From Shigella phage JK23, in sequence record MK962752: a DNA stretch of 64,000 nucleotides; one strand, written 5' to 3'. Made by a program: the position numbers and the translations under genes. Below the pieces are notes generated by a model. That model was not told where the DNA came from, did not search any database, and saw only the letters and a program-made list of their open reading frames with translations. Each line of letters starts with the position of its first letter. The first letter of the stretch is position 1. This document shows, in pieces, positions 9,009 through 62,811 of the stretch.

Positions 9009-9022
9009 TCTTTGACGATTTA

Positions 9023-9040
9023 AGGGACCTTCGGGTCCCT
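9023..9040 (+). terminator. hairpin terminator after gene 23
   Basis: AGGGACC-TTCG-GGTCCCT followed by T-rich tract. Confidence 0.7.
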
Positions 9041-9056
9041 TTAGTTGTTTTTATGG

Positions 9057-10375: not shown

Positions 10376-10380
10376 AACAA

Positions 10381-10398
10381 AGGGACCTTTCGGTCCCT
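10381..10398. terminator. bidirectional hairpin between convergent genes 24 and rnlB
   Basis: AGGGACC-TTTC-GGTCCCT followed by TTTTATTT. Confidence 0.7.
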
Positions 10399-10404
10399 TT
10401 TTAT

Positions 10405-11966: not shown

Positions 11967-11984
11967 AAGGGGCCGAAGCCCCTT
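11967..11984 (-). terminator. hairpin after hoc
   Basis: AGGGGC-CGAA-GCCCCT. Confidence 0.6.
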
Positions 11985-24213: not shown

Positions 24214-24504
24214 TTATTTACGGAATGAAATGAAAGCAGAAACTGAAGCAACTAAACTGTCTTCAATATAAACTTCAATTTTTACCGGAGCTTCTGACTC
24301 AAATTTACCTGTTACTACACCTTGGAAAATGCTTTCAGTCTGTTCTGGTTTTGAAAAATTTTCAGAAGGAAAAATTCCGAACTTTTTATCTGTTCCAAAA
24401 ATTTTAATAAATTCATCGTAAACTGCTTCATTAAAAGCATTATCAGCAGGAATAACGCCTTCAACGACGAGCTCTTGGCCTAAAAAGCGTAAAGAAGATT
24501 TCAT
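24214..24504 (-). CDS. hypothetical protein downstream of alt (alt.-N family)
   Basis: 96-aa ORF with ATG start, GAGGA RBS and early promoter upstream. Confidence 0.6.
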   Translation of the reverse strand: MKSSLRFLGQELVVEGVIPADNAFNEAVYDEFIKIFGTDKKFGIFPSENFSKPEQTESIFQGVVTGKFESEAPVKIEVYIEDSLVASVSAFISFRK

Positions 24505-24511
24505 TTTGTGT

Positions 24512-24565
24512 TCCTCATGTTATGTCAGTAAGACTACTATAACACAACACGAGGGACTTGTAAAC
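24512..24565 (-). repeat. 54-bp exact repeat, copy 1 (early promoter plus leader)
   Basis: Identical to 40482-40535. Confidence 0.9.
24536..24565 (-). promoter_or_regulatory. early promoter (-35 GTTTAC, -10 TATAGT)
   Basis: On - strand GTTTAC, 18-bp spacer, TATAGT, then GAGGA RBS; inside 54-bp repeat. Confidence 0.55.
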
Positions 24566-28750: not shown

Positions 28751-28755
28751 AAATT

Positions 28756-28773
28756 AAAGGCCCGAAGGCCTTT
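28756..28773 (-). terminator. hairpin upstream of alt late promoter
   Basis: AAAGGCC-CGAA-GGCCTTT. Confidence 0.55.
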
Positions 28774-28960
28774 AATAATCTATTGGTAAGAGAGTACGAT
28801 ATATTTCAAACTTTGGACCTTTTTCATAGGCATCAAAAGTTTCTGTGAATTTATTATAAGCATATGCATCTATAAATTCAATCATGATTTGTGATACAGA
28901 AGTAGAAACATCTCCACCTTCTTTTTGAGCCACGACAATTGTTTCTAAGTAAGCTTTCAT
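28772..28960 (-). CDS. hypothetical small protein
   Basis: 62-aa ORF, ATG start overlapping 3' end of gene 30. Confidence 0.45.
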   Translation of the reverse strand: MKAYLETIVVAQKEGGDVSTSVSQIMIEFIDAYAYNKFTETFDAYEKGPKFEIYRTLLPIDY

Positions 28961-32700: not shown

Positions 32701-33066
32701 TTAAATATCAAATTCGTTAAGAACTACATCAAAGATTGCTTCAAGATGCTCAGGTTTAGCTCTGTTACTCAGAATATGACGAATCCAAGTTTTAACCAAA
32801 AGCTTGCGATTAACGCCATTCCAGCAAGGATGAGTCCCTAAATCGCGTTCACGGAAATCATCATCCAGAGCGATTTTAAAGTTGGAACCTTCCATCGTGA
32901 TTGAAACCGTGATACCGTTTTCAAATCGCATATAAACGTAATTAGGAGTCATATACTGCTCAATTTCGCATACTGATCCATTTTGATGTTTCCAAAGGCA
33001 AATAGTATCAATAGAACCTGCAATACCATTAGAAACATATTTACGTTCAAAGTTGATGTAGTTCAT
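32701..33066 (-). CDS. 30.7: hypothetical protein 30.7
   Basis: Track start is TTG; ATG 33066 after GGAG RBS gives 121 aa; early promoter upstream. Confidence 0.6.
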   Translation of the reverse strand: MNYINFERKYVSNGIAGSIDTICLWKHQNGSVCEIEQYMTPNYVYMRFENGITVSITMEGSNFKIALDDDFRERDLGTHPCWNGVNRKLLVKTWIRHILSNRAKPEHLEAIFDVVLNEFDI

Positions 33067-33102
33067 TTTATTCTCCAAGATGTTTAATTGCGGTACAGGT
33101 AT

Positions 33103-33131
33103 ATAATATCATATCCTGTACCAAAGTAAAC
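33103..33131 (-). promoter_or_regulatory. early promoter upstream of 30.7 (GTTTAC, 17 bp, TATTAT)
   Basis: Read on - strand; -10 lies in the loop of an 8-bp palindrome. Confidence 0.55.
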
Positions 33132-33466: not shown

Positions 33467-33552
33467 TTTATTCTCCTTTGTTTGTGTAAGATAATACTAT
33501 CACAAAGGAACCATACTGTAAACAACTTTATGCAATCTTTGGAAAATAAAAA

Positions 33553-33572
33553 AGGACTCCCGAAGGAGTCCT
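33553..33572 (-). terminator. hairpin after 30.9
   Basis: AGGACTCC-CGAA-GGAGTCCT. Confidence 0.6.
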
Positions 33573-33576
33573 CAAC

Positions 33577-36401: not shown

Positions 36402-36634
36402 AGTACGCCATACACCCTTTGTGCTTCAACTAATCCATCAAAATCCAATTTGAGATGTGTTATTTGGTCACCATCACCTGGATTCACAATTACTAATACC
36501 GAACGAGGAGTTTCGGTAATAACACGAACCGACGTTTCAGGAAATCGTTCAGAAACCTTATTTACCAATTCTTGAGCAAATAGTTTAACTTTTTCTTGGA
36601 ATTCTTTAACAGTAATTGGTTTTTCGCTTAGCAT
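36398..36634 (-). CDS. cd.2: hypothetical protein cd.2
   Basis: 78-aa ORF. Confidence 0.55.
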   Translation of the reverse strand: MLSEKPITVKEFQEKVKLFAQELVNKVSERFPETSVRVITETPRSVLVIVNPGDGDQITHLKLDFDGLVEAQRVYGVL

Positions 36635-37155
36635 GTTGATCCTAGCTCCTTACTTTCAACATTTTTAACTAATTTGACAGAAACTAATTCAGCATCTTGG
36701 GTAATCATTACCGGACCTTCTTCATGCTCTTCAAGATATTCTAGAGCTTTCTTTTTAGCTTCTTCCTTCGTATCAGTTTGAGCATAGATATAGAACATAC
36801 AACCAGTAATACCTACTACTTTCCACTTAATTTCTTTATCAGTTTTAATTTCAAATTTACTTACAGAATCATCTTTTTGAACTTCTTCGAAAAAAGAATA
36901 TTCTAACATATAAGCAATTGAAAATAACGGGCTAACTTTATAGGATTCACCCATTACATCAACAGCTTTATACCAACAATCATCAATTTCACGTTTAATG
37001 CTAATAACATTTTTCGCAGGATCTATTTTTACTTTAAATGAATTTTCCCCAATAAACTGGGCAATTCGTTTATTAGCCTCGCAAGTTTCATTAAAAATAT
37101 CTTTATATCCAGCTTTAAAGCGATAAACCTTATCTTCTTCAAACCATTCGCTCAT
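36628..37155 (-). CDS. cd.3: hypothetical protein cd.3
   Basis: 175-aa ORF with early promoter upstream. Confidence 0.6.
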   Translation of the reverse strand: MSEWFEEDKVYRFKAGYKDIFNETCEANKRIAQFIGENSFKVKIDPAKNVISIKREIDDCWYKAVDVMGESYKVSPLFSIAYMLEYSFFEEVQKDDSVSKFEIKTDKEIKWKVVGITGCMFYIYAQTDTKEEAKKKALEYLEEHEEGPVMITQDAELVSVKLVKNVESKELGSTC

Positions 37156-37185
37156 TTCAATTTCCTCATTTGTTTTGGTAGAGCT

Positions 37186-37215
37186 ATAATATCACAACTC
37201 TACCGTAAAGTAAAC
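37186..37215 (-). promoter_or_regulatory. early promoter upstream of cd.3 (GTTTAC, 18 bp, TATTAT)
   Basis: Read on - strand; -10 lies in the loop of a 7-bp palindrome. Confidence 0.55.
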
Positions 37216-39980: not shown

Positions 39981-40477
39981 AAAGTTTTAATAACCTCTAT
40001 AATATCGTCTTGAGAAAGACCGTTAATTAAAATATGATGTTCAGCCGGAGATTTAGAAATTTTAAAGCATGCCTCAACATCTTCTGCCATATCCGATGCG
40101 CTACGATTTGGATTACTAATTCCAAGACGATGTTTTCCCGTTAAAGGATTAACGATGATATAGCATTTACAGTTGTTAATATGAACATTAGGTTGAGTCT
40201 GATTAATGAACACATCGCAATCATATTTCGCAAGCTGATTTTCTAAAAAGACTTTCATCTCTTCAACCGCATCAGGAAGCATATCACGGGCTTGCTCAAG
40301 ACGACGATTTCGATATTCTTTAATGGTCGTTTTCCGCTTGACTTGCTTAGCTAAATCTTTCTTAAGATCGGTGATATATCCAACTCGACGGTTTCCTTTA
40401 AATACAGAAATCCCATCTGTAGTATCACCGTATGCTTCAACGACCATTTCAGTAGTAATGAGCTGCAAATCCATCAT
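39971..40477 (-). CDS. alc: Alc transcription-elongation inhibitor
   Basis: 168-aa ORF (T4 Alc ~167 aa) between pseT cluster and rnlA; early promoter upstream. Confidence 0.75.
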   Translation of the reverse strand: MMDLQLITTEMVVEAYGDTTDGISVFKGNRRVGYITDLKKDLAKQVKRKTTIKEYRNRRLEQARDMLPDAVEEMKVFLENQLAKYDCDVFINQTQPNVHINNCKCYIIVNPLTGKHRLGISNPNRSASDMAEDVEACFKISKSPAEHHILINGLSQDDIIEVIKTLCN

Positions 40478-40481
40478 AAAG

Positions 40482-40535
40482 TCCTCATGTTATGTCAGTA
40501 AGACTACTATAACACAACACGAGGGACTTGTAAAC
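40482..40535 (-). repeat. 54-bp exact repeat, copy 2 (early promoter plus leader of alc)
   Basis: Identical to 24512-24565. Confidence 0.9.
40506..40535 (-). promoter_or_regulatory. early promoter of alc (-35 GTTTAC, -10 TATAGT)
   Basis: Identical sequence to 24536-24565. Confidence 0.55.
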
Positions 40536-61998: not shown

Positions 61999-62781
61999 AT
62001 GGCAGTAGTTGGTGTTCCTGGTTGGATTGGAAGTTCAGCCGCAAATGAAACAGGACAGCGCTGGATGAGTCAAGCGGCTGGTCAATTAAGATTGGGTGTT
62101 CCTTGCTGGATGAGTCAATTTGCAGGTCGCTCACGAGAAATTATTCACACGCTTGGAGCAGACCATAACTTCAATGGTCAATGGTTCCGAGATAGATGTT
62201 TTGAGGCAGGTAGTGCACCTATAGTGTTTAATATTACAGGTGATTTAGTATCATATTCTAAAGATGTTCCTTTATTCTTCATGTACGGAGATACACCAAA
62301 TGAATATGTTCAGTTAAATATACATGGCGTAACGATGTATGGACGTGGCGGTAATGGTGGTAGCAATAGTCCTGGCTCAGCTGGAGGTCATTGTATTCAA
62401 AACGATATTGGTGGGAGACTAAGAATTAATAATGGTGGAGCTATTGCTGGCGGCGGTGGCGGCGGTGGCGGCGGATATTATTCTCCTTTTTCACAAATGA
62501 GATTAACCTTTGGCGGTGGTGGTGGGCGTCCGTTTGGTGCACCTGGCGGATCTATTGATATGCAATCAGGCGCAACTGCTGGTACTATTTCTGCACCTGG
62601 CTCAGGATCCGTGAATGGTATCTATAATGGTGGAAACGGTGGTGAAGTAGGTTCCGCGGGAGGTAGATGCAATATTCGCGGTCAAGGATCTGAATATAAT
62701 GGCGGCGCTGCTGGTTATGCTGTCATAGGGTCTGCTCCAACGTGGCAAAATGTTGGAGCAATATATGGTCCAAGAGTATAA
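61999..62781 (+). CDS. 38: tail fibre adhesin gp38 (T2/T6 type, glycine-rich motifs)
   Basis: 260-aa ORF with conserved N-terminus and C-terminal Gly-rich blocks ([16 protein letters not shown]). Confidence 0.9.
62449..62475 (+). repeat. (GGN)9 trinucleotide tract encoding poly-Gly in gp38
   Basis: ggcggcggtggcggcggtggcggcgga read directly. Confidence 0.9.
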
Positions 62782-62811
62782 TGTGAATAAATACCCTTAA
62801 AAGGAGGGTCT

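Follow-up and report, generated by a model that had tools for sequence, protein, structure and literature searches.

The window, by which we mean the whole 64,000-nt stretch of DNA analysed here, derives from a Tequatrovirus 99.9% identical to Tequatrovirus G4498 and carries, in two short intergenic gaps of 55-62 nt each, an early promoter on which an inverted repeat is superimposed. Site 1 lies between gene 30.8 and gene 30.7 (the latter identified via Pfam PF06919), and site 2 between cd.3 and the gene downstream of it (Table 1). Both repeats were confirmed as perfect, at 33092-33122 (8 bp, 15-nt spacing) and 37177-37204 (7 bp, 14-nt spacing). Read on the minus strand, each site displays the form GTTTAC-N16/17-TATTAT, in agreement with the early promoters proposed by the preliminary description; site 2 is annotated as the early promoter Pe133295 in T4, and the -35 element of the T4 counterpart of site 1 is located at T4 coordinate 129917. 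In T4, 30.7 and cd.2 are preceded by promoter-hairpins identical to these two, including the position of the -10 hexamer in the loop of the palindrome, a feature that had also been claimed and that we recovered at both sites. AT-rich stretches (AAAATAATT and AATTTAATA) precede the promoters of sites 1 and 2, respectively, and a Shine-Dalgarno sequence and an ATG come within 10-26 nt after each hairpin, the 3' arms ending 22-26 nt before the AUG. Transcription starts, inferred from the usual 7-nt distance past the -10, would fall at about G33096 and A37179, i.e. inside the downstream arm, as the preliminary description had it.

Table 1. Features of the two promoter-hairpins and of related elements of the window.
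Feature	Position	Strand	Sequence or remark
30.8 stop codon	33136-33134	-	TAA; 2 nt upstream of site 1 -35
Site 1 -35 element	33125..33131	-	GTTTACT; early promoter upstream of 30.7; identical in T4
Site 1 5' arm	33115..33122	-	GGTACAGG; within promoter spacer; 33122-33115 pairs with 33099-33092
Site 1 loop	33100..33114	-	ATATGATATTATATA, 15 nt; holds -10 TATTAT at 33108-33103
Site 1 3' arm	33092..33099	-	CCTGTACC; contains predicted transcription start
30.7 Shine-Dalgarno through start codon	33064..33076	-	GGAGAATAAAATG; from sequence
cd.3 stop codon	37220-37218	-	TAA; 2 nt before site 2 -35
Site 2 -35 element	37210..37215	-	GTTTAC; Pe133295 (early) in T4
Site 2 5' arm	37198..37204	-	GGTAGAG; within promoter spacer; 37204-37198 pairs with 37183-37177
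Site 2 loop	37184..37197	-	TTGTGATATTATAG, 14 nt; holds -10 TATTAT at 37191-37186
Site 2 3' arm	37177..37183	-	CTCTACC; contains predicted (inferred) transcription start
175-aa ORF	36628..37155	-	expressed from site 2; absent from T4
30.8 promoter element	33474..33523	-	GTTTAC-N17-TAGTAT; 8-bp repeat TCCTTTGT (33509-33502) / ACAAAGGA (33481-33474)
Canonical UUCG-loop terminator with T-tract	33573-33552		precedes 30.8 promoter element
Early promoter pairing with Shine-Dalgarno region	40475..40535	-	spacer and -10 pair with downstream gene's Shine-Dalgarno region; from folding
Near-identical cassette (~50 bp)	24502-24565	-	copy of 40475..40535

The surroundings of the two sites bear the marks of gene turnover. 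At site 2, the window and T4 diverge just past the Shine-Dalgarno sequence, with a breakpoint in the 5' UTR and an indel abutting the site: cd.2 comes directly after the promoter in T4, with no ORF of 175 aa in between, and no Pfam family was found for the protein that this ORF encodes in the window. At site 1, the upstream flank is replaced as far as the -35 in a related locus (L181), and the 30.7 ribosome-binding region contains GGAGAATAAAA, which matches GGAGRAYARAA, the consensus of strong RegB cleavage sites (PMC3014915). In T4, the ATG-initiated frame that follows the site 2 promoter ends at an early stop. The T4 RefSeq record also marks the same 14-nt loop of site 2 as 'inverted complement of previously reported sequence'; we considered this inversion as a natural polymorphism and rejected it, the inverted form being present in the old T4 record X03007.1 only and absent from modern genomes, and it probably arose as an artefact of cloning or sequencing. 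A search of Rfam returned no family match anywhere in the window.

This arrangement is already known, and both sites match the published PeSL (promoter-early stem-loop) cassettes, described in RB49 and phi1 by Arbiol et al. 2010 (PMC2839356) and widened to the PST/T4 and nt-1/KVP40 phages by Comeau et al. 2014 (PMC4122927). Sites 1 and 2 share with PeSLs the order of their elements, in which an upstream stop and an AT-rich stretch lead to a sigma-70-like early promoter with its stem-loop, followed by the Shine-Dalgarno and start codon of the next gene, as well as their repetition through early variable regions and the indels that adjoin them between close relatives; promoter, overlapping stem-loop, intergenic position, repetition in the genome and association with indels or replacements were all found at both sites. 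Furthermore, the consensus TTTACW-N17-TAYWAT given for PST/T4 PeSL promoters in the 2014 article fits both of them. Differences exist nonetheless: the stems of RB49 PeSLs are poly-G/poly-C and not homologous to those of sites 1 and 2, and a figure legend of the 2014 article has the stem-loops of PST/T4 'just upstream of' the promoter, with AGNA-loop-TCNT as the usual stem, whereas the arms of sites 1 and 2 flank the -10 (PMC4122927). Functionally, PeSLs were proposed to terminate or attenuate transcription arriving from upstream, and a single GC-rich RB49 stem-loop lowered downstream lacZ expression in a reporter, so that terminator activity was demonstrated for that one stem-loop, not for T4; in RB49, a crossover was also mapped within a PeSL loop, and mini-circles produced by recombination between cassettes form part of the PeSL description (PMC2839356).

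Inverted repeats of this size are common, with 191 perfect repeats of at least 7 bp and 3-24 nt loops in the 64-kb window, and palindrome counts alone were discarded as a signal because of this abundance. Their placement was more informative. Among 20 GTTTAC-type promoters of T4, a set that required an ATG-initiated ORF and leaves out T4 site 2, a repeat of at least 6 bp brackets the -10 in 8 cases, versus 6.4% of 2329 other -10-like hexamers (binomial p = 1.8e-5), and a repeat of at least 8 bp in 4 cases, versus 1.1% of the control hexamers (p = 5.6e-5). In the window, 3 of 6 promoters have such a repeat (p = 4.5e-3), the one first counted as the third case being a 6-bp AT-rich repeat at promoter 53030, which we rejected as its fold (-2.8 kcal/mol, z +0.7) is no better than shuffled sequence. 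The explanation by chance palindromes of AT-rich intergenic DNA, to which the 191 repeats and the 53030 promoter would lend themselves, is thus refuted where sites 1 and 2 are concerned: this enrichment, the z-scores of their folds (-4.6 and -4.7) and their covariation across genera leave it a negligible probability. The scan of early promoters suggested by the preliminary description gave a divided answer: the same architecture is enriched, but the same sequence is not. The 'similar GGTA-AG stems' hold for the two sites and end there, since the palindrome occurs nowhere else in the 169 kb of T4, its half-sites are not enriched, and the stem sequences of T4 early-promoter palindromes are mutually unrelated.

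Comparison with orthologues revealed that pairing, instead of sequence, is what these elements preserve. Upstream of 30.7 homologues of Winklervirus, Mosugukvirus, Jiaodavirus, Serratia phage 4S and Klebsiella phage kv_tblp2, a hairpin of 7-11 bp occupies the same place as site 1 with a different stem sequence; the 5' arm, invariant among close relatives, is replaced by other complementary sequences in these distant genera. In the corresponding alignment (A3), pairing extends to 96.6% of the cells, and both partners have changed in 9 of the 11 pairs, a level of pairing reached by none of 500 shuffles and to be compared with 35-52% in slid controls. Site 2 showed 4 compensatory pairs in 4 sequences, with compensatory changes in three orthologous loci (L146, L125 and L081), and a difference between the paralogous T4 cassettes 20611 and 57989 is a compensatory change from C-G to T-A. 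Additional sampling contributed little: a broad promoter-pattern search of viral contigs matched mostly unrelated phages, the T4-like contigs alone being useful, and a metagenome scan for 30.7 relatives yielded almost no additional stem variants. On this comparative sequence evidence, the hairpins are selected for pairing.

RNA folding then revealed a preference for one strand. Sense RNA folds at -16.1 kcal/mol for site 1 (z -4.6) and -16.3 kcal/mol for site 2 (z -4.7), relative to shuffled sequence, and antisense RNA at -15.0 and -9.1 kcal/mol (z -1.9 for the latter); in the DNA of the window both repeats are perfect, and the folds are nearly strand-symmetric for site 1 but not for site 2. 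In the predicted sense folds, inner ATAT/ATAT pairs lengthen the site 1 stem around a bulged A, and five extra pairs, three of them G·U, lengthen the site 2 stem to 12 bp and reduce its loop to 4 nt. Single stem substitutions in relatives point to the same strand, with all eight (few events) giving a sense-strand G·U and none an A·C; the opposite strand would carry the same variants as A·C. Of 27 hairpin promoters, 23 likewise have a sense RNA that is more stable than the antisense one, the mean margin being 3.2 kcal/mol; T4 promoter 65798 folds better as antisense. The T4-wide count of G·U pairs, 18 sense versus 6 antisense (p = 0.02), becomes marginal once the sense-strand excess of G over C is allowed for. 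Both promoters lie in co-directional gene arrays, so that RNA from upstream promoters carries both arms, and the hairpin is predicted to persist in 146-nt read-through contexts at -16 to -19 kcal/mol. By contrast, the promoters' own transcripts, with their inferred starts at ~33096 and ~37179, begin within the 3' arm, lack the 5' arm and therefore cannot form the hairpin; they are predicted to be unstructured (0 and -1.4 kcal/mol). The G·U bias and the stability of the sense fold, both read from sequence, favour a hairpin in read-through RNA over a symmetric cruciform. As G·T is the least harmful mismatch in single-stranded DNA too, a DNA hairpin of the non-template strand keeps some likelihood.

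Such a hairpin resembles intrinsic terminators, including the UUCG-tetraloop type of T4, in being a stable intergenic mRNA structure at the end of a cistron. It differs in what follows it: the tails, GCAATTAA and AAAACAAA, are devoid of a U-tract and the sequence downstream is A/C-rich, so that canonical intrinsic termination is not expected, and the loops of 4-15 nt are dictated by the -10. An intrinsic terminator was thus rejected for both sites, neither of which is called by a terminator scan, in line with the earlier statement that the structure is not a simple RNA terminator. The 8 nt that follow contain 0-3 T at all six T4 hairpins of this kind, and the true terminator with its T-tract at 33573-33552 looks quite unlike sites 1 and 2. 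The presence of a nearby upstream terminator did not discriminate between promoter classes, as none was found at 6 hairpin promoters and most unstructured promoters are likewise without one. Literature searches for maps of T4 transcript starts and ends found nothing usable.

Sites 1 and 2 belong to a larger set of structured promoters. Such structures were found at at least 11 of ~22 GTTTAC-type promoters of T4 and at 4-6 of 8 promoters of the window; folds from promoter to start codon had a z of at most -3 at 11 of the 21 T4 promoters and also at site 2, always with the 5' arm in the promoter. In about half of the T4 GTTTAC-type early promoters, a hairpin thus takes its 5' arm from the spacer or -10 region of the promoter itself. 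In part of this set, the partner of the spacer or -10 is the Shine-Dalgarno sequence or AUG of the gene, as observed for T4 promoters 13185, 15287, 62796 (regB), 123092 and 136335 and for window promoters 24565, 40535, 33523 and 49728. The folds of the 40475..40535 and 24502-24565 cassettes are strong (-24.4 kcal/mol, z -5.2, and -23.0 kcal/mol, z -5.3), and that of the 30.8 element, the 3' arm of which covers the Shine-Dalgarno, is weak (-12.1 kcal/mol, z about -2). In addition, in Karamvirus-type orthologues of the 30.7 promoter, the spacer/-10 pairs with the Shine-Dalgarno/AUG region (CTCCGTTGTAT/ATACAACGGAG, with the compensatory variant CTCCGAGGTTT/AAACCTCGGAG). A precedent exists in the T4 genes e, soc, 49 and I-TevI, where an inhibitory RNA hairpin has a late promoter inside its 5' strand (PMC3014915). 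The likeness resides in the embedded promoter and in a hairpin restricted to transcripts from further upstream, the promoter's own transcript being without the 5' strand. However, the promoter of these genes is late and the 3' strand hides the Shine-Dalgarno or AUG, whereas at sites 1 and 2 the promoter is early and the 3' arm is clear of both; the sister promoters 24565, 40535 and 33523 of the window, and regB and others in T4, do hide the Shine-Dalgarno as in e, soc, 49 and I-TevI.

Taken together, we consider it probable that sites 1 and 2 are PeSL stem-loops selected as base-paired structures and acting on the sense strand, in read-through RNA. Each short intergenic gap holds a strong sigma-70-type early promoter overlaid by a hairpin, the arms of which take the least-constrained promoter positions, i.e. 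the spacer and the start-site region, so that the -10 hexamer falls in the loop. The hairpin would form in RNA started upstream and crossing the junctions between 30.8 and 30.7 and between cd.3 and its downstream gene, and the RNA of the embedded promoter would begin in the 3' arm, without the 5' arm, and remain unstructured. In read-through RNA, the hairpin could mark the cistron boundary and may attenuate upstream transcription, as proposed by the authors of the PeSL concept; alternatively, it may act as a 3' barrier protecting the upstream message, for instance after RegB has cut the GGAG that starts 16 nt past site 1. Gene swaps between phages could also use the conserved cassette as a homology patch.

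Other readings of the same structures have to be weighed against this one. A switch governed by transcript origin, in which the hairpin makes read-through RNA translate differently from the RNA of the embedded promoter, would be the early counterpart of e, soc, 49 and I-TevI (PMC3014915). Pairing of the spacer or -10 with a Shine-Dalgarno or AUG does occur at many sister promoters and at the 30.7 promoters of Karamvirus type, and the predicted contrast between unstructured own transcripts and a read-through hairpin of -16 to -19 kcal/mol also speaks for such a switch; but at both sites the 3' arm touches neither element, and the extra pairing near the ribosome-binding site at site 2 of the window is not conserved in T4, which makes this analogy rather unlikely here. 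A recombination element operating in DNA, where the palindrome or a single-strand hairpin would be a site of breakage or exchange for cassette shuffling (as in the PeSL mini-circles) with no role in RNA, would account for the indel abutting site 2, the replaced flank in L181, the duplicated promoter cassettes within the genome, the RB49 crossover mapped in a PeSL loop (PMC2839356) and the inverted site 2 loop of the old cloned T4 sequence. Selection for evolvability is weak, yet pairing survives a complete turnover of sequence in five genera; homologous exchange requires conserved sequence, not conserved pairing, and the sense-strand G·U bias is left unexplained, so that we regard this reading as improbable.

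Two further explanations place the function in duplex DNA. If negative supercoiling extruded the palindrome, the -10 would be exposed in a single-stranded loop and the promoter turned off or on; the repeats are indeed perfect in duplex DNA, site 1 folds nearly equally on both strands, and the T4 promoters 57989 and 65798 have long stems of 13-14 bp with loops of 8-10 nt. Inverted repeats at promoters are likewise found in phage N4, whose own virion RNA polymerase recognises a small extruded promoter hairpin, and in an E. coli promoter engineered to be controlled by the extrusion of a cruciform, reportedly the work of Horwitz and Loeb in 1988. Unlike N4, T4 early promoters use the host sigma-70 holoenzyme on duplex DNA, and the evidence here favours the sense strand alone. 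Stems of 7-8 bp with loops of 14-15 nt make poor candidates for extrusion, every tolerated stem variant is G·U in the sense strand and would place an A·C mismatch in the other arm of a cruciform, the antisense hairpin of site 2 is weak, and cruciforms are substrates of T4 endonuclease VII, which also counts against them; the chances of this explanation appear slim. The last, a dimeric DNA-binding regulator recognising GGTA-AG ... CT-TACC at both promoters, is suggested by stems that share 6 of 7 bases, by half-sites about two helical turns apart that overlap the promoter, and by outer GGT...ACC pairs that hardly vary among orthologues. Against it, the palindrome has two copies only in T4 and its half-sites occur at chance frequency, hence our rejection of a recurring GGTA-AG operator motif; unrelated palindromes stand at the same position of other early promoters, G·U-type variants are tolerated, and orthologues swap most of the stem for unrelated complementary sequence, this preservation of pairing despite complete stem turnover arguing against any sequence-specific operator. 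We hold it for very improbable. The preference of the preliminary description for a DNA-level element, be it regulator site or cruciform, thus found no support, with pairing kept through stem turnover, G·U on the sense strand in eight of eight substitutions and a site 2 fold of -16.3 versus -9.1 kcal/mol.

Our results bring little that is new in themselves, as PeSL-type cassettes are found once more, in a phage closely related to the best-studied one, T4. The comparison nevertheless sharpens the picture of these elements, favouring selection for pairing, a preference for the sense strand and formation in read-through RNA only; for annotation, it implies that these palindromes are not to be labelled terminators or operators. 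A wider reading, which we put forward tentatively as a possibility, is that the early promoter inside a hairpin is a genome-wide device of T4-type phages, in which the behaviour of a transcript is set by its start point. If so, this device would take two forms. In one of them (regB, the duplicated 24565/40535 cassette and 30.8), the 3' arm would hide the Shine-Dalgarno of the next gene, which would be translated mainly from the transcripts of its own promoter, and in the other, which includes sites 1 and 2, a hairpin without U-tract would close off the upstream message. The principle of e, soc, 49 and I-TevI would then extend from a few late promoters to the whole early transcription programme, and PeSL stem-loops would gain a post-transcriptional role in place of a purely terminating one.

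The source of the window is a Tequatrovirus, 99.9% identical to Escherichia phage vB_EcoM_G4498 across the pseT-cd-31-rIII-30.x region, where every gene is carried by the minus strand. As proposed in the preliminary description, the inverted repeats studied here (sites 1 and 2) overlap early promoters. These are of the T4 type, with GTTTAC, a 16-17 nt spacer and TATTAT, and the -10 hexamer sits in the loop of a perfect repeat, of 8 bp at site 1 and 7 bp at site 2, whose coordinates had been given exactly. The predicted transcription start, 7 nt past the -10, likewise falls within the downstream (3') arm. The T4 copies of both elements are identical at every base, site 2 being annotated there as early promoter Pe133295. 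At this site the window and T4 are the same through the promoter, hairpin and Shine-Dalgarno, with divergence setting in a few bases 5' of the start codon, the window carrying a 175-aa ORF where T4 has cd.2 instead. Of the genome records, the old T4 entry X03007.1 alone has the site 2 loop inverted, and no modern genome does; this inversion would cut the spacer to 13 nt, killing the promoter, and probably either was selected while a toxic strong promoter was being cloned or is a sequencing artefact.

Coordinates of the hairpin promoters and associated features (window unless T4 is stated; arms read on the sense strand)
Feature	Coordinates (strand)	Details
Site 1, upstream of 30.7	33092-33122 (-), inverted repeat	TAA (30.8 stop), TT, GTTTAC, TTT, GGTACAGG, ATATGA-TATTAT-ATA, CCTGTACC, GCAATTAAACATCTT, GGAGAATAAAATG (30.7 start)
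Site 2	37177-37204 (-), inverted repeat	TAA (cd.3 stop), TA, GTTTAC, TTTAC, GGTAGAG, TTGTGA-TATTAT-AG, CTCTACC, AAAACAAAT, GAGGAAATTGAAATG
Site 2 loop, 14 nt	37184-37197; T4 133300-133313	T4 RefSeq: 'inverted complement of previously reported sequence'
Predicted 5' UTR, site 1	33045-33096 (-)	0 kcal/mol, z +1.7
Predicted 5' UTR, site 2	37135-37179 (-)	-1.4 kcal/mol, z +0.6
175-aa ORF between site 2 and cd.2	36628-37155 (-)	no Pfam match
GC-rich inverted repeats, TTCG or CGAA tetraloops	9022-9041, 10379-10400, 11967-11984, 28753-28776, 33553-33572	last one called as UUCG-loop intrinsic terminator
Region upstream of 30.8	33474-33573 (-)	UUCG-tetraloop terminator with T-tract, then early promoter
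Promoter cassette, ~50 bp (GTTTACAAGTCCCTCGTGTTGTGTTATAGTAGTCTTACTGACATAACATGAGGA)	24502-24565 (-), 40475-40535 (-)	near-identical, 16 kb apart; same pair in T4 at 123092 and 136335
regB promoter region	T4 62737-62796 (-)	loci L003-L006
Form 1 promoters (3' arm directly after -10)	33131, 37215; T4 7214, 20611, 57989, 65798	sites 1 and 2 included
Form 2 promoters (3' arm over Shine-Dalgarno or AUG)	24565, 40535, weaker at 33523, 49728; T4 13185, 15287, 62796 (upstream of regB), 123092/136335	
No significant structure on folding	53030, 63802	

With 191 perfect repeats in the window (stem of at least 7 bp, loop of 3-24 nt), the size of the two repeats is unremarkable alone; the unusual feature is their position around the -10. 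In the assembled whole genome of T4, 20 GTTTAC-type promoters preceding a gene (a set from which the ORF filter wrongly removed site 2) were compared with 2329 other -10-like hexamers. Perfect repeats of at least 6 bp bracketed the -10 in 8/20 promoters versus 6.4% of control hexamers (p = 1.8e-5), and those of at least 8 bp in 4/20 versus 1.1%. The stems of different T4 promoters are unrelated (e.g. GGGACC, GACAAGACT, AGTTGACAAGATT, TCCTAGAATTGTGA), and the GGTA-AG palindrome previously suggested to be a conserved element is confined in T4 to the two promoters, with half-sites at chance level; it is thus the architecture, and not the sequence, that recurs. As RNA, the two are far more stable than shuffled sequence, site 1 folding at -16.1 kcal/mol (z -4.6) and site 2 at -16.3 kcal/mol (z -4.7). 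Promoter 53030 was rejected as a third case, its 6-bp AT-rich repeat folding no better than chance.

Promoters upstream of 30.7 homologues were gathered from phage genomes and viral contigs as well as from metagenomic sequence. Among close relatives, GGTACAGG/CCTGTACC is invariant while the loop, 5' UTR and upstream flank vary. In distant genera the hairpin keeps its position with different stems: GGTGAGAGTCT/AGACTCTCACC in Winklervirus X20, GGTGTAAGAGT/ACTCTTACACC in Klebsiella phage kv_tblp2, GTGAGATAAC/GTTATCTCAC in Serratia phage 4S, TGTAGGAGAC/GTCTCCTACA in Mosugukvirus PM2 and GGGTGGT/ACCACCC in Jiaodavirus. The site 1 alignment (A3, 11 sequences) has 96.6% of its cells paired, with both-sided changes in 9/11 pairs; none of 500 shuffles was as good, and pairing stood at 35-52% once the partner column was displaced by 1-3 positions. 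In the comparison of site 2 orthologues (L146, L125 and L081), four compensatory pairs were found among four sequences, and a compensatory C-G to T-A change separates the related T4 cassettes 20611 and 57989. Selection therefore acts on pairing and not on a particular stem sequence.

The outermost GGT...ACC pairs (A3 columns 10-12 and 39-41, and the site 2 family) are near-invariant across genera and usually followed by an A/C-rich tail (AACAA), which may stem from constraints on the start site and 5' leader instead of the hairpin. In T4-like contigs of Klebsiella/Enterobacter/Serratia type (L060, L061, L078, L083, L127, L132, L138, L153), many early promoters share ACTCCTACAC(C)AACAA directly after the -10, with or without a complementary spacer, possibly a conserved 5' leader or the product of cassette homogenisation. 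Upstream of 30.7 in metagenome contig OBCQ01000004.1 (L181), promoter, hairpin and gene are kept and the flank is unlike T4 all the way to the -35, so that the cassette appears to mark a recombination joint.

The preliminary description favoured a DNA-level element, such as a regulator binding site or a cruciform. Pairing that is kept while the stems change argues strongly against a sequence-specific operator, and the DNA-level reading as a whole is not supported. All eight single stem substitutions among close relatives (L030, L044, L047, L053, L179, L051, L081, L143) yield G·U on the sense strand, hence A·C on the other, and none the opposite; five come from a set retrieved by protein homology, hence unbiased as to the stem. 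The sense RNA of site 2 folds at -16.3 kcal/mol into a 12-bp stem including three G·U pairs, against -9.1 kcal/mol for the antisense, and across 27 hairpin promoters sense is the more stable in 23, with a mean gap of 3.2 kcal/mol to which the promoter consensus TGGTATAGT contributes. Outside the consensus positions, G·U pairs in the structured T4 promoters number 18 for sense folds and 6 for antisense folds, a count only marginal alone because the sense strand has more G than C. Overall, these results favour a hairpin formed by the sense strand. Since both sites lie within co-directional gene arrays, the natural reading is RNA from upstream promoters; both hairpins are retained when folded in 146-nt read-through contexts. 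For transcripts begun at the two promoters themselves, the predicted leaders show no more structure than their shuffled versions and thus appear essentially unstructured.

A simple RNA terminator had already been dismissed, and this holds: both hairpins lack a T-tract downstream and are passed over by the terminator scan, which does detect the true UUCG-loop terminator at 33573-33552. No other T4 hairpin of this -10-bracketing type has a T-tract either (0-3 T among the 8 nt that follow), and Rfam returned zero family matches in the whole window. Upstream of the 30.7 homologue in a Jiaodavirus-like contig (L052), the promoter is immediately preceded by a true terminator with a T-tract and its hairpin has a degenerate 5' arm, a single case that fits a hairpin mattering only under read-through.

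On sequence-level criteria, sites 1 and 2 belong to an already published class, the promoter-early stem-loops (PeSLs), described in RB49 and phi1 as cassettes implicated in gene shuffling (Arbiol et al. 2010, PMC2839356); they share all of its sequence features, including indel association (the 175-aa ORF versus cd.2). A later study added the PST/T4 pair to the class and gave TTTACW-N17-TAYWAT as the promoter consensus (Comeau et al. 2014, PMC4122927); its legend places the PST/T4 stem-loops 'just upstream' of the promoter, a slightly different geometry.

Folding each T4 early promoter from GTTTAC through the start codon gave z of -3 or lower for 11/21 promoters plus site 2, with the 5' arm within the promoter every time and the two forms listed in the table. 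Karamvirus-type orthologues of the 30.7 promoter take form 2, also with compensatory variants. Form 2 resembles T4 e, soc, 49 and I-TevI, for which the T4 post-transcriptional review (PMC3014915) describes a late promoter within a hairpin masking the ribosome-binding site in longer transcripts. In the GTTTACAAGTCCCTCGTGTTGTGTTATAGTAGTCTTACTGACATAACATGAGGA cassette, the downstream Shine-Dalgarno is the pairing partner of the spacer and -10 region (z about -5.3). At the 30.8 promoter, which follows the canonical UUCG terminator, spacer TCCTTTGT pairs with ACAAAGGA in the Shine-Dalgarno region, so the ribosome-binding site could be masked in any RNA that gets past the terminator. The regB spacer (UUUUCCUCUUGACUG) and the Shine-Dalgarno region of the same gene (CAGUUAAGAGGAGAA) can form 15 bp, two of them G·U (-22.4 kcal/mol, z -5.6); the passages searched in that review report that RegB cuts the Shine-Dalgarno of its own message and make no mention of this hairpin.

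The site 1 Shine-Dalgarno region (GGAGAATAAAA) fits GGAGRAYARAA, the published consensus of strongly cut RegB sites (PMC3014915), and a cut there would place a new 3' end ~17 nt from the hairpin; this link is limited to site 1 and fails for other hairpins of the same type. Beyond the observed structure, enrichment, covariation and strand bias, we infer an action on read-through RNA: the hairpin may attenuate read-through transcription even without a U-tract or, alternatively, may shield the upstream message at its 3' end.
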